Positions 38,823 to 43,844 of a stretch of 64,000 nt of DNA are shown piece by piece. A program made the position numbers and the translations under genes. The DNA comes from Candidatus Heimdallarchaeota archaeon. GTDB lineage: Archaea > Asgardarchaeota > Heimdallarchaeia > JABLTI01. Every line of letters begins with the position of its first letter. Position 1 is the first letter of the stretch. Under the pieces are notes generated by a model. It had not been told where the DNA came from. It saw only the letters and a list, made by a program, of their open reading frames with translations, and searched no databases. Location of the stretch: NCBI GenBank assembly GCA_019056785.1, contig DXJV01000084.1, positions 32,001 to 96,000 of the forward strand. Direction: 5' to 3'.

Positions 38823-41300
38823 TTAATTATCCTTCTTTTTCAAAGCTAATTGAACGTTTTCCAAAGCCTGTTTGCACAAGTGAAAATTATTTTTCGTTAT
38901 CTTATGATCACTAAAACGCGCTTCCTCATAACGCATTACTAGCATTGTGATGTCCCGGACAGGAACACGATTTGTAGAATTGACAATTCGAGCTAATTCT
39001 CTCGGAGAGAGCTTAGTAGCCTCAGAGATAAATAAATCCTGTATACAGAGTAATTCGAATGCACGATAGCACAAGATTACGGCACGACGATAGTCCTTAG
39101 CTTTAGCAGCTTCATCAAGCATTTTCATGACTGTCGAAAGATCGAGCCCTTCTCCCAATTCGCCTACAGCAAGAGTCTTTTTCGCTTTCCGGAAGCGCCC
39201 GAAAGCATAGATAACTGAAATTAGCACAATTAATGATACAGTTGATACAAGTATTCCAATTGCAAGTTTATCTGACAAATTCAAACCTCCATTTGGTTGT
39301 GTTGATGACGGTGGGGTTGTGGATGATGGTGGAGTAGCAGCAGGAGCACTAACCTCCATTTGGAAGGTGAAAATGCTGCTGGGGTCATCATTGAATGTGA
39401 TAGTAATAGTGTAGTTATTAGCTGGAAACCTGAGGAATCCAGCTGAGGGCAAAGTGAGATTTCCCGCACTATTTAATGTTTCATTATATGTTATGAATCC
39501 TCCGATTTGGATAACTATTGCACGACCGCCAACTCCCCTACCAAAATTGTCTGTTATAGCAGTGTGGAAAGTAAAATTCGTATAATTGTAAATAATGTTC
39601 CCGGCAAGGGTGCTAACTCTTGAGCCATCAATTATTTCAGTTCGATTAAGCCAAACTCTAATCTGGACAGATGTAAAGACATTAACCAAGAAACTGGTAT
39701 TGGAGGCAGTATAATATCTTGTAGTGCCTGTTGTTAAATAAACAGTGCCATTTTTCAAGGCAGGGTTTACTGTTTCAGGAATTTGTAAAAGTAGATTGTA
39801 ACTCCCAGAACTAGATGTTATTGCACTAACTGGTATCCCAAAGTCCTCCCATTGAGCTGACACTGAAATATTCTCTATGCCAACATTACTAAATGAATCC
39901 CGAATTGTGCCGGTGATTGAGATGTTCTCTCCAGGCATTGCCAAAACAGTGCTTGAAGTTACAAGTGAGCCATTAACAAGGGGTGTTGCGACGGTGGAAT
40001 TCCCGTAAATGGTAATATTATGATATTCCACACTTGCAGTTATGCCTTGACCGGGGGCAACATCTACAGATAATGGATGATCACCAACGGTTAAAGAATT
40101 GTTTAAAATAAAGGTGGTACTAAAATTGCCGTCAGCAGCAGAAGCAAAACTATGAACAGTTGTAGAACTATCGGCTAAAACATTCAGATTGACCGGAAAA
40201 CCAAACGGATTGCCGTTAGTATCGGTAATTTGACCTGAGAGAGAAATGCTAGTAATCCCCCGAAGAACGCTGGGGTAGAGGAAAGGCGCGGGAGGTAAGG
40301 GGTTATCAATGGAAAAAGTAATTCCTGCCCCAGAAAACACTTCAATGCTTTGTGAAGTGTTACACCAGTCGGCCGCAGGAGAAGACAATTGGGAGGCAGA
40401 GGTAATCGTTCCAACAACATACGGAAGACCCAATGTTGTGAGGTTATAAGAAGCAATAAGAATATGAGAACCTAAAGAGGTTGTACCTGGAACAATAAAA
40501 GTTGTATGAGCAATTAACCCACTAATTGAGACTTCAGTCACATTCCCAAGCCAGCTAAAAGTTATGTTTGTACCTTCAGCAGCTGTGATTGGTTGGGGGT
40601 TAGAAAGCGTACTATTATCAAAGAATAAAGCAGCATCAGCAGTAAAGCCATTGTTTCGACGAACAATTGTTTGATTTACTTGCATTAACATTATACCGTA
40701 AGCATAACATTCAATTGTATCAGTCGTAAATTGACGATTATCCTCGATGGGCCCAAGTAGGGGATCGCCAGGAAAAACGGAATAAACTGTTTGCTGCCCT
40801 GCAGATTTGGAATGATCATTATCAACACAAGTAATGGTAAAATCGCCATTACTATTCGTTGTACCTTGGCCAATAAGATAATTATTTTCTAAATTAGTCC
40901 TATCTGTCTCGTATTCTGCCCAAGTAAAATGCTCCCAGAAAATCTTAATTGGTTCTCCGGGAATGCCTTCGCCAGTAGAGTTATCTACAAGCCGGCCCGT
41001 AACAACAAATGCTTCCCCCCGAACAATGGTCGTTGGGTTTAAGGACTCAAGATGATGAGAATTTTGATTCGGAGTCGATTGGGCAGACATTATTGTGTTA
41101 GCAGCATCAGCAGGCAAAATAGTTGCTGTAAGAACAGTCGAAGAAGACGCTTCCCCTGGTGGTAGGTTATTAACTGAAGAGGAAGGAACCGAAGTTGGAG
41201 GAAATAGGATGGAAGAAAAGGCCAGTAGAATGAGGAAAACACAAAAACCCAGTACAATAAAGACCGAGTACTTATAGGGAGAAGTTTTTCTTACCGCCAA
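38823..41300 (-). CDS. Large Ig-like-repeat surface protein with TM helix and cytoplasmic DUF4129 domain
   Basis: Signal anchor, repeated beta-rich G.L.D..G units, a P/S/T linker, a TM helix, then DYRRAVI..Y...SPRELA...YEEARFS.H. Confidence 0.82.
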   Translation of the reverse strand: MAVRKTSPYKYSVFIVLGFCVFLILLAFSSILFPPTSVPSSSVNNLPPGEASSSTVLTATILPADAANTIMSAQSTPNQNSHHLESLNPTTIVRGEAFVVTGRLVDNSTGEGIPGEPIKIFWEHFTWAEYETDRTNLENNYLIGQGTTNSNGDFTITCVDNDHSKSAGQQTVYSVFPGDPLLGPIEDNRQFTTDTIECYAYGIMLMQVNQTIVRRNNGFTADAALFFDNSTLSNPQPITAAEGTNITFSWLGNVTEVSISGLIAHTTFIVPGTTSLGSHILIASYNLTTLGLPYVVGTITSASQLSSPAADWCNTSQSIEVFSGAGITFSIDNPLPPAPFLYPSVLRGITSISLSGQITDTNGNPFGFPVNLNVLADSSTTVHSFASAADGNFSTTFILNNSLTVGDHPLSVDVAPGQGITASVEYHNITIYGNSTVATPLVNGSLVTSSTVLAMPGENISITGTIRDSFSNVGIENISVSAQWEDFGIPVSAITSSSGSYNLLLQIPETVNPALKNGTVYLTTGTTRYYTASNTSFLVNVFTSVQIRVWLNRTEIIDGSRVSTLAGNIIYNYTNFTFHTAITDNFGRGVGGRAIVIQIGGFITYNETLNSAGNLTLPSAGFLRFPANNYTITITFNDDPSSIFTFQMEVSAPAATPPSSTTPPSSTQPNGGLNLSDKLAIGILVSTVSLIVLISVIYAFGRFRKAKKTLAVGELGEGLDLSTVMKMLDEAAKAKDYRRAVILCYRAFELLCIQDLFISEATKLSPRELARIVNSTNRVPVRDITMLVMRYEEARFSDHKITKNNFHLCKQALENVQLALKKKDN

Positions 41301-41409
41301 CAGGATTCATACCACCAGATCAAATTGTCTTACATGGTTCAATTACTCTTTTATTATTATTATTCTAAAATGTAAACCACTTATTTATAGATTCTTAATT
41401 GTGCACTTT

Positions 41410-41756
41410 AAAAAAAGCGGATCGAAGAAGGTGGAAAGGATAAAGACCTTCAAAAATTTACTAAACCAGGTCGATGGTCGGGCTTAGCACCAGTAAACTG
41501 GGCTTAGGGGCCGACCATCTGTTTGAATAACACTTCAACGGTTTGGCATTCTAGGACTCATCAAATTGTGTTATTCCAATCTGGCTCTTACAATTTCACC
41601 ACTTTTGGAACACCATTCTTCTATCGGGCAGTAAGAAGATTCCCCAAACTCTTGTGGCTCAGAGTCTATTCAATACAAGGAATAGCTCTCCTGTTTGAGG
41701 GCGTCCTATGATGAAATGATAAGCGCGATTACTTTTCCTTAGATCCTCAAACACAT
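41410..41756 (-). ncRNA. Putative ~345-nt structured non-coding RNA of unknown class
   Basis: At least seven contiguous or nested stems with perfect 5-9-bp cores. A TATA-like element lies ~25 nt upstream of the first stem and a T7 tract follows the last. No convincing ORF. Confidence 0.6.
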
Positions 41757-41867
41757 TCTATCTATTATACACTTACCAATAAAAAAGTTACCTTTCAACC
41801 TTTTCCTTTTTTGTTCAACTCTTTCTTCTCACCGGCTAATTGTCTATGTTATTTTTTACAGGAGCGC

Positions 41868-41942
41868 AATTACAGTTTATTGTAATAGAATTACATAGAT
41901 TTAAATACTCATTTATGTAAGTTAAGTATAGGAAAATGTAAT
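41868..41942 (+). promoter_or_regulatory. Promoter (TTTAAATA 41900-41907) embedded in repeated TGTAAT/ATTACA inverted half-sites; likely operator
   Basis: ATTACA 41869, TGTAAT 41881, ATTACA 41890, TATGTAA 41914 and TGTAAT 41937, all upstream of an ArsR-like regulator. Confidence 0.5.
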
Positions 41943-42071: not shown

Positions 42072-43124
42072 ATGTCAAATAAAAGAGAAAAAAAGAGAAT
42101 AGAACTTGAAAGAGAAATTCAAGAATTACAACGAAAATTACAAAGACTCTATGCTAAGGAAGGAGAAGAAGACGAGGAAGTGGATTTTGTCCGTCCATTA
42201 CCACCATTACCACCAACACCACCGAGGGCAGGAAAAAGAAAAACAATCTATAGTACAACTTTAAAGGAAGGCGAACCAAGCGAAAAAGCCAGGAAAATCG
42301 AGAAAGAACGAATGCGACTGCAACGAGAGAAACGCCGGGAAGAATTAAATAAATTACGGCAAGAATTAAATGTACGCGAAAAAGAGTATCAGAAACGCAA
42401 ACGAGAATTTGAGCGACTTCGGCGGGAGATTCGTGAAAAGGAGCGACTCGTTCGTGAAAAAGAGCGAGAACTGAGAAAAAGGAGTTATGGAAGTTACTCT
42501 TTTGATATGGACCTTGATGAGGATATTGAAGGCATGACTTCAGAACTCGAAACACGCCTTGGTGAGTATACTCGGTCCATCCTGGCATCAGTCGCTGAAA
42601 GCTTGAAATCCTCAATGGGGATTGTTATAGGCTCTACCAGCGAAGTCGGCAAGGATCTGAAGACTGTTGGGAATGAGCTTGGTAAGATTGGAAAAGAGAT
42701 CACTCAAAAAATCACCAAAGATTTGTATGGCACTGTTGGGCCGAGAATTCCCACTGATAAATTAGAAGAATTCTATGAGATTGGCGCAAGTATAGTTTCA
42801 GCAATTGGCGATCCAAATAGACTCCGAATTTTGAAGGAATTGGAAAAAGGCCCCATGTATCAAAAGGAATTGAGTGAAATTACCAATCTCCGGGGCGGGA
42901 CATTTAAACACCATATGGACAAACTCCTTGATGAGAAGGTGAAGTTTGTCACCCAAGAAGTCGTGCGTGGGCGCTATATCTTAACTACACGCGGCCGTGA
43001 AGCTTTGAAATTAGCTGAAATACAATATATACGCTATCTCGAGGAGAAGGAGAAAACAAAACGCCGGGAAAAAGCATCGGCATCAAAGGATTCCGATGAG
43101 GAATTTGATGTGAAAATTCAATAA
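42072..43124 (+). CDS. ArsR-family wHTH regulator with long N-terminal charged coiled coil
   Basis: AIGDPNRLRILKEL.KGP....EL...GG...HH..KL...Y.LT.RG. The N-terminus is E/R/K-rich with a poly-Pro stretch. Confidence 0.8.
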   Translation: MSNKREKKRIELEREIQELQRKLQRLYAKEGEEDEEVDFVRPLPPLPPTPPRAGKRKTIYSTTLKEGEPSEKARKIEKERMRLQREKRREELNKLRQELNVREKEYQKRKREFERLRREIREKERLVREKERELRKRSYGSYSFDMDLDEDIEGMTSELETRLGEYTRSILASVAESLKSSMGIVIGSTSEVGKDLKTVGNELGKIGKEITQKITKDLYGTVGPRIPTDKLEEFYEIGASIVSAIGDPNRLRILKELEKGPMYQKELSEITNLRGGTFKHHMDKLLDEKVKFVTQEVVRGRYILTTRGREALKLAEIQYIRYLEEKEKTKRREKASASKDSDEEFDVKIQ

Positions 43125-43142
43125 CACAGGAGTTGGTTATAA

Positions 43143-43844
43143 GTGCAACTAGAATTAATAAATGAACCCCTAAAGGTCACTCAGCCAACCATAATTGCTG
43201 ACTTGGAAGATACAATGGTCACAATTGGCAAGCGTTCTCGAATGTTTCCGGTAAAGGACTTTAAAACAAACGAAATAAAAGGCTACTATATTGTTGGAGA
43301 CATCTATCTCGGAGCAGATACAATTGTGATTACTGAACAAGGCGCAGTTGGTGACCCCATTGAGAAACTTGCAAGAGAAGCTTTTGTTAGTAATCAAAAC
43401 ATAGATTTATCGAATGCTAAACCGGATAATGTCTCCGAGAAGGACTTTCGGAAAATCGAACTTGATGCCTACCGAAATTTCCAAAAAATGGAGAAATTCG
43501 GATTGGAGCACAAAAAAATCGTCATCGAGGGCATCAAATTTCATCTATCTAAAAAAATTGCCGGGAAATACTTTTTTGTCTATCTCTTTAACCCCAAGGA
43601 GTTCATTCTTGTAAAAGAGCGTGAATTACTTATTGCCCTCTCGGATGAAGACCGTGCAATTATCATCTGTAATAAGGCGAAGAACTCTTATGTTGAGGTG
43701 TCTAAAAGTCAAGGGGTAAAGATTTCTAATCAAAAAGGTGAAACGATTAATGCAAATTCAACGAATGGTTTGGTCATTAATGGTCGCGGATTAGATGAAA
43801 TTATCTTTACTGTGTTTGACAACTTGAAAAATGTTTTCCAATGA
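43143..43844 (+). CDS. Hypothetical beta-rich protein
   Basis: 233-aa ORF with a GGAG RBS, 18 nt after the regulator. Confidence 0.65.
   Translation: MQLELINEPLKVTQPTIIADLEDTMVTIGKRSRMFPVKDFKTNEIKGYYIVGDIYLGADTIVITEQGAVGDPIEKLAREAFVSNQNIDLSNAKPDNVSEKDFRKIELDAYRNFQKMEKFGLEHKKIVIEGIKFHLSKKIAGKYFFVYLFNPKEFILVKERELLIALSDEDRAIIICNKAKNSYVEVSKSQGVKISNQKGETINANSTNGLVINGRGLDEIIFTVFDNLKNVFQ

Follow-up and report, generated by a model that had tools for sequence, protein, structure and literature searches.

The 64,000-nucleotide stretch of a Candidatus Heimdallarchaeota genome analysed here, called the window below, contains an intergenic region that is dense in inverted repeats. What does this region encode, from which strand, and what might its product act on? 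The first-pass annotation of the window proposed a stand-alone non-coding RNA of an uncatalogued class, or else a leader of the gene cluster downstream, and left the strand open. At the level of sequence comparison, our results demonstrate a two-domain fold, an invariant loop on helix P6 and a position-specific complementarity between this loop and the leader of a tauE mRNA. We consider it probable that the RNA is a trans-acting antisense sRNA that controls tauE by base pairing.

A folded RNA gene on the minus strand

The inverted repeats, the T/A-rich box and the U7 tract (41410-41416) that had been listed for this region are all present in the sequence. In comparison with shuffled sequences, region 41410-41790 is unusually stable when folded as the minus strand (z = -3.1, 0/100 shuffles), with lower values for the plus strand (z = -2.1, 3/100). 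The corresponding values for the 273-nt core are -5.3 for the minus strand versus -2.5 for the plus strand, and minus-strand z-scores range between -2.8 and -6.6 across all 12 homologues (25 shuffles each). G-U cells outnumber A-C cells by 58 to 15 in the helix columns of the homologue alignment, and thus selection acts on the minus-strand RNA. This bias, together with a TATA box before all 12 homologues, settles the strand as minus and removes the plus-strand option.

The distance from the TATA box to the 5' single-stranded motif of the RNA is 49-64 nt in each homologue. At the other end, a run of at least five U follows the core in 9 of the 12 homologues and is absent from three. The U7 tract and the hairpin before it are a probable terminator in this genome, although the hairpin at 41427-51, which had been counted among the stems of the RNA, is absent from relatives. 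The transcript would be about 330-345 nt long, with both ends placed from these signals. No ORF of 80 aa or more is found in the RNA region. The frames that start at an AUG inside the P6 loop are not conserved in length (8 codons here), and no synonymous change occurs among the 12 homologues; judged from its reading frames and alignment, the RNA appears to be non-coding. The coordinates are collected in Table 1.

Table 1. Features of the RNA gene, its surroundings and the predicted target site (window positions unless a contig is named)
Feature	Position	Strand	Remarks
RNA-gene TATA box	41778..41787	-	A-rich BRE-like stretch upstream; comparable box in 12/12 homologues; putative promoter element
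Predicted transcript, ~345 nt here	41410..41757	-	Ends predicted from TATA spacing (5') and U7 tract (3')
Conserved core, domains I + II	41459..41731	-	Alignments, covariance models
Domain I	41587..41731	-	RNAalifold and pair counts, 10 relatives
5' single-stranded motif	41718-41727	-	Domain I
P1	41708-41717 with 41593-41602	-	Domain I
P2	41700-41706 with 41607-41614	-	Domain I; opens into three-way junction
P3	base 41693-41699 with 41643-41649	-	Conserved bulge 41654-41660; loop 41672-41679
P4	41634-41639 with 41617-41622	-	Loop 41623-41633
L3-L4 kissing loop	41623..41679	-	In 11 relatives; compensatory change in second genus
Domain II	41459..41590	-	Three-way junction of P5, P6 and P7
P5	41581-41589 with 41463-41469	-	Weakest helix, 65% of cells paired
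P6	41568-41576 with 41525-41533	-	
Invariant 23-nt P6 apex	41540..41562	-	3-bp stem + 18-nt loop; identical in 12/12
P7	41511-41519 with 41473-41481, plus inner stem	-	Best supported helix, 98% of cells paired
3' hairpin + U7 tract	41410..41451	-	Hairpin species-specific, missing in relatives
TATA-like box of downstream cluster	41382..41390	-	Distinct from the RNA; counterpart in 12/12 homologues
Downstream neighbour, 825-aa membrane-anchored protein	38823..41300	-	Heads DUF4350-MoxR-DUF58 cluster
Divergent upstream neighbour, coiled-coil + ArsR-type HTH protein	42072..43124	+	
tauE complement in this genome	G000:C7:11648-11667		Outside the window

The RNA is confined to one family in the genomes searched

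A DNA search found the RNA in 9 of the 11 other genomes of the family, and no convincing match outside it. In the two family genomes without a match, the contigs end near the locus. The 12 distinct sequences used throughout come from family genomes and two metagenome contigs. One homologue is located on JABLTI010000007; the family belongs to the Heimdallarchaeia, and we take JABLTI01 to correspond to the Gerdarchaeales. A further record, L038 (DATKZI010000039.1), is titled Bathyarchaeia yet identical in sequence to G009, which is grouped in the Heimdallarchaeia genus studied here, and is likely mislabelled. The same two genes flank the RNA wherever the homologue contigs reach, and the RNA is single-copy with fixed synteny in every genome that carries it, this one included when dispersed copies were looked for.

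Wider searches returned the same family. Covariance models run on 83 genomes of the class, with limited sensitivity, matched members of the family only, and gave no homologue in the 71 other Heimdallarchaeia genomes (35-39 candidates scored per genome, with one match at E 0.04). No such RNA was detected upstream of the orthologues of either neighbour in other families. A motif search of a 300-genome sample of the phylum gave nothing convincing (two matches with three mismatches), and viral contigs and phages contained no match to the RNA.

Both neighbours are class-wide and the RNA is restricted to one Heimdallarchaeia family among the genomes searched, a distribution that an insertion of mobile DNA (a MITE, IS end or intron), surviving as a remnant between the two genes, could produce. 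However, such an origin is hardly credible for a sequence with a single copy per genome, fixed synteny, a strand-specific G-U bias and compensatory changes, and with no counterpart in the viral and phage sequences.

The other reading offered by the first-pass annotation, a leader of the downstream cluster, deserves closer attention. The gene for the 825-aa protein is syntenic with the RNA in all RNA-bearing members of the family, and the RNA always lies upstream of the cluster and co-oriented with it. A cis-acting leader or riboswitch would be consistent with this arrangement, with the combination of a three-way junction and kissing loops, a layout seen in the purine and lysine riboswitch aptamers, and with the missing U-run in 3 of 12 homologues. 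However, the cluster has a TATA-like box of its own in all 12 homologues, located 52-113 nt past the RNA core at variable spacing; other Heimdallarchaeia families, including one with a complete genome, have the cluster without an RNA upstream; and Rfam gives no riboswitch match. We therefore regard a cis-acting role as very unlikely. Since the RNA and the cluster have separate TATA boxes, and the cluster and ArsR-type loci of other families lack the RNA, a stand-alone gene is favoured.

The divergent coiled-coil ArsR-type gene (within window 42072-43844, plus strand) is present in 63 of the 83 Heimdallarchaeia genomes and is usually followed on its 3' side, in the loci inspected, by a 220-240-aa gene without a known family. 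TTACA/TGTAA words are repeated near its promoter (window 41860-41935), in relatives too, and form a candidate autoregulatory operator of this gene.

Covariation supports two three-way-junction domains

The core, which measures 273 nt in this genome and 287-297 nt in relatives, could be divided into two domains, each predicted to be built around a three-way junction. Domain I was recovered by RNAalifold unaided. Together with the kissing loop, 93% of its cells are paired and both sides change in 14 of 50 pairs, against only 39-53% paired in slid controls. A model built without this sequence finds domain I here at E 3e-10, and a model lacking both this sequence and that of the second genus recovers the two (E 8e-12 and 2e-6). 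The kissing loop between L3 and L4 is the best conserved non-nested pairing in the homologues. In this genome, the L3 half of the pairing is lost and P3 is shortened, while the L4 motif is kept, so L4 may have a second role. A 5' hairpin located upstream of domain I folds no better than shuffles in 11 of 12 sequences.

Covariation in domain II is moderate in a plain alignment and better in a model-fitted alignment, which itself leans towards structure. Its outstanding feature is the apex of P6: all 23 nucleotides are identical in the homologues, versus a mean column identity of 70%.

The comparative model retains part of the earlier stem list, namely P5 as the closing stem of the junction, both the P6 and the P7 hairpin, and the distal part of P3; several other stems are particular to this species or give way to another pairing. 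The proposed stem 41692-700/41745-53 is not in the model, in which 41693-99 pairs with 41643-49. The closure of the 3' domain by AAAAGUGG/CCGCUUUU is replaced by the pairing of 41593-602 with 41708-17, and the loop-E-like GUAA/AGUA element is likewise not conserved or replaced. What had been read as a long hairpin at 41603-47 consists of P4 plus strands of P2 and P3.

RNase P, SRP and 5S RNAs map elsewhere in the genome

Rfam gives no match at the locus, and nothing near its cut-offs. The first-pass annotation could find no RNase P or SRP core here, and the true genes lie elsewhere. The locus gives no RNase P RNA match and lacks its P4 pseudoknot with CR-I and CR-V; a stem resembling RNase P RNA is a local hairpin, and the true RNase P RNA is on contig C6 and was also found in five relatives. 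The helix 8 motif, the long helix 5 and the terminal helix 1 of SRP RNA are absent in the alignments; the true, canonical SRP RNA is on contig C14, and five relatives have theirs as well. Likenesses to hammerhead, group I, SAM-I, cobalamin, tmRNA and leader-peptide motifs are unconserved and have no Rfam support.

Because no 5S rRNA gene was found at first and the outline of domain II resembles 5S rRNA, a 5S identity was also tested. The locus has no RF00001 match, and a permuted 5S rRNA is encoded elsewhere in 12/12 genomes of the family. The 5S genes of Heimdallarchaeia are circularly permuted: they start in helix III, cap helix I with a short loop and have a complementary leader and trailer. 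In this genome the gene lies on the minus strand of contig C80 (G000:C80, ~82500-82690), and Rfam passes a 5S in just 4 of the 83 genomes. Two high-scoring matches of ordinary order in the class, L111 and L112, have a bacterial or non-Asgard look and may be bin contamination.

The P6 loop is complementary to the leader of a tauE mRNA

We examined the complementarity of the invariant loop to gene starts of this genome. Among 2,196 gene starts, the best duplex is formed with the leader of a tauE/safE gene on another contig, which encodes a 377-aa TauE/SafE protein (18 bp, -27.1 kcal/mol; next -22.9). The tauE leader also ranks first among 1,205 promoter-anchored leaders, with the runner-up at -19.4, and none of 60 shuffled loops reaches -27.1. 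A substitution-only search of the genome missed this site because of a small bulge.

The prediction was then evaluated on genes held out of the discovery. Nine tauE orthologues gave a mean of -20.2 kcal/mol. Shuffled loops averaged -9.1 +/- 1.6, with 0/2000 reaching the observed mean and the best of them at -16.3, and the opposite strand gave -8.5. Where contigs reach, these orthologues lie in the order sfsA, small ORF, tauE. In a second set of seven further contigs, collected from other samples by protein homology, six sites were strong, among them an uninterrupted duplex of 16 bp, and the seventh was weak; the mean was -20.3, versus -8.1 for shuffled loops (0/2000), and adjacent gene starts averaged -9.0. 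In total, a duplex covers the ribosome-binding site of the orthologous tauE mRNA in 16 of 17 loci, of which 13-14 are strong. Weak sites occur in three orthologues (G003, -14.7; G006, -14.2; L376, -13.7 kcal/mol). The relatives are not fully independent, as L373 is close to G005 and L374 to L377. The site is missing from TauE homologues of families that lack the RNA (-4 to -12 kcal/mol); the value of -17.5 for G042 results from a start placed within the coding sequence. The second-genus genome G011, which is 75% complete, keeps the loop and has TauE matches without a site; its TauE match whose neighbours were checked is not syntenic.

The tauE leader is 20-27 nt long and nearly all of it is complementary to the loop. 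In ten genomes the site starts 27-30 nt past the first T of the tauE TATA box, near the predicted 5' end of the mRNA; it extends over the Shine-Dalgarno AGGA and in most cases stops 1-8 nt short of the AUG. The P6 apex is predicted to be an antisense seed that includes the anti-Shine-Dalgarno UCCU. In the predicted fold the loop is mostly open, and cofolding with the target gains 15 kcal/mol. For the variable bases between the Shine-Dalgarno and the AUG, the first six bases of the loop rank third among 4,096 hexamers and first among 60 permutations, and the loop register used differs between species.

This constant spacing could also reflect a DNA site for a transcription factor or an initiator at the tauE start, present in inverted form in the RNA gene, with no pairing between RNAs. 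The motif lies 27-33 nt past the tauE TATA box in most loci, where a repressor could act, and an ArsR-type regulator gene adjoins the RNA. In contrast, the complementarity extends through the variable bases to the AUG (3/4096), includes G-U pairs and shifts in register, and in the RNA gene the motif caps a covarying hairpin that lies some 200 nt from the promoter, which makes a shared DNA site quite improbable. The register shifts and the fit to the variable bases argue for RNA pairing rather than a DNA motif. Since the loop never changes, no compensatory change between the RNA and the mRNA can be shown.

A single target does not account for the invariance of all 23 bases, and more targets beyond tauE are likely. 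Our searches found no further conserved mRNA target; there are about 90 other motif sites, mostly within coding sequence. The tauE paralogues within the family have a weaker enrichment, in some at the start codon: L246 and L261 (G007, G003) and L263 and L264 (G008, G001) contain partial loop complements, either two 9-mers directly behind the start codon or a single 9-mer some 60 nt upstream, and are possibly secondary targets. Separately, a second-best loop duplex (-24.6) is located at G000:C47, ~20415-20398 on the minus strand, where it overlaps a five-codon mini-ORF preceding a 621-aa gene that looks PIN-domain-like by eye.

We also considered stable RNAs as partners of the loop. A role in guiding or chaperoning rRNA, tRNA or some other stable RNA (C/D-, H/ACA- or U3/snR30-like) might explain why the loop begins with GAUGA, which resembles box C, as well as a 10-bp match to the D-arm of tRNA-Gly(UCC) and an 8-bp match to the loop of SRP Alu helix 3. 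The last of these, an 8-nt loop complement kept in six SRP RNAs, has p ~0.013 before correction and is weak after multiple testing. The tRNA match, however, is broken in G011, where the loop is unchanged; complements to 16S and 23S rRNA are at chance level (59-99% of shuffles equal them); and the alignment has no conserved box D partner or ACA box. A guide function is therefore highly improbable. Among the individual candidates, the matches to 16S helix 44 and the 23S 3' region are unconserved and equalled by shuffled loops, the match to the 23S peptidyl-transferase loop is to the bacterial sequence, from which the 23S of this genome differs, a 7-nt match to the 5S precursor leader is explained by its leader-trailer stem and is changed in G011, and RNase P RNA as a target is at chance level. 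The 23S gene itself (G000:C99) carries an insertion of ~0.8 kb, in which group I intron-like motifs occur together with an ORF that is LAGLIDADG-like by eye, and a smaller insertion near the peptidyl-transferase region.

Discussion

Together, our results indicate that the locus holds a real, previously undescribed RNA gene at the level of the family. The proposal of a stand-alone non-coding RNA of an uncatalogued class stood up well, with a covarying structure, its own TATA box, a single copy per genome and no Rfam match. The first-pass annotation had not noticed the invariant loop or its conserved complement in an mRNA; with these, the unknown class becomes a probable trans-acting antisense RNA. 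The features of the sRNA class that can be read from sequence are all present: the signals of an intergenic unit, a non-coding sequence, and a conserved seed, predicted to be accessible, that is imperfectly complementary to an unlinked mRNA near its ribosome-binding site.

We then propose a mechanistic model. The RNA would be transcribed separately from its own promoter. The exposed 3' half of the loop would pair first with the 5'-most bases of the tauE leader, the 3-bp apex stem would then open, and pairing would spread across the ribosome-binding site of the tauE mRNA. Blocked translation of the transporter appears somewhat more likely as the outcome than a shielding of the mRNA 5' end against nucleases; since the duplex also spans this end, stabilisation of the mRNA may result instead. 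Domain I may serve as a module for stability, protein binding or sensing. It is tempting to speculate that domain I senses a metabolite or protein, perhaps related to sulfur, and thereby gates the silencing of the TauE mRNA by domain II, but we regard this extension as doubtful. The substrate suggested by the name TauE, sulfite or another anion, should be taken as a family label only.

Alternatively, the RNA could be an ornate orphan RNA or an RNP scaffold with its main job elsewhere, such as binding a protein, forming multimers or holding a ligand; the tauE leader would then pair with it secondarily or act on it as a decoy or as a trigger. With its 191 nt, sRNA162 (PMC3510493) is smaller and less folded; the kissing loop of the RNA here is accompanied by invariant junction bases, and its P6 loop is invariant while the target varies. 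However, in 16/17 loci the duplex coincides exactly with the ribosome-binding site of a single orthologous mRNA, and the genome studied here has lost the kissing loop and retained the antisense loop. We consider a scaffold unlikely.

Antisense control by the P6 loop has precedents in Methanosarcina mazei. A hairpin loop of sRNA154 with an anti-RBS sequence masks the ribosome-binding site of trans-encoded mRNAs, and this sRNA both masks ribosome-binding sites and stabilises targets (PMC5867862). Like sRNA154, the RNA described here is intergenic, conserved within an archaeal lineage and equipped with an anti-RBS hairpin loop, in our case predicted from sequence. The two have no Rfam or sequence relationship: the RNA here has two three-way junctions and a kissing loop, a single loop that covers almost the whole of a short leader, an Asgard host and a predicted TauE target. 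sRNA162 pairs via a variable linker and masks the ribosome-binding site in the mRNA of its ArsR neighbour (PMC3510493). It too is intergenic, adjoins an ArsR-family gene, occurs in close relatives only and combines stems with a single-stranded, RBS-masking segment. In our case, by contrast, an invariant loop pairs, the target is unlinked and no ArsR target was seen.

In its architecture, the RNA is reminiscent of OLE, ROOL (~660 nt) and GOLLD (>800 nt), bacterial and phage RNAs that form homo-oligomers (PMC12286853). Like them it stands alone and has a covarying fold of several junctions and a kissing loop, without homology, but it is smaller, has no Rfam match and has a conserved mRNA complement. 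Archaeal SRP RNA (RF01857) is similar in length and, in topology only, in having a kissing-loop junction and, after it, a helix that runs on to two hairpins; the RNA here has no helix-8 motif, terminal helix 1 or long helix 5.

A literature search, with most subscription journals outside its scope, found a description of neither this RNA nor any pair of an Asgard sRNA and its mRNA target. The mechanism class is already known from Methanosarcina and bacteria, the RNA is family-confined in the genomes searched, and the predicted target is a poorly characterised transporter. The prediction can be checked with two short in vitro transcripts despite the uncultured host. The RNA is unusually folded for an sRNA, so it could become a case in which an ornate orphan RNA is linked to a real target. 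If the model is true, it would represent comparatively supported, RNA-guided control of an mRNA in the Heimdallarchaeia, the group nearest to eukaryotes.
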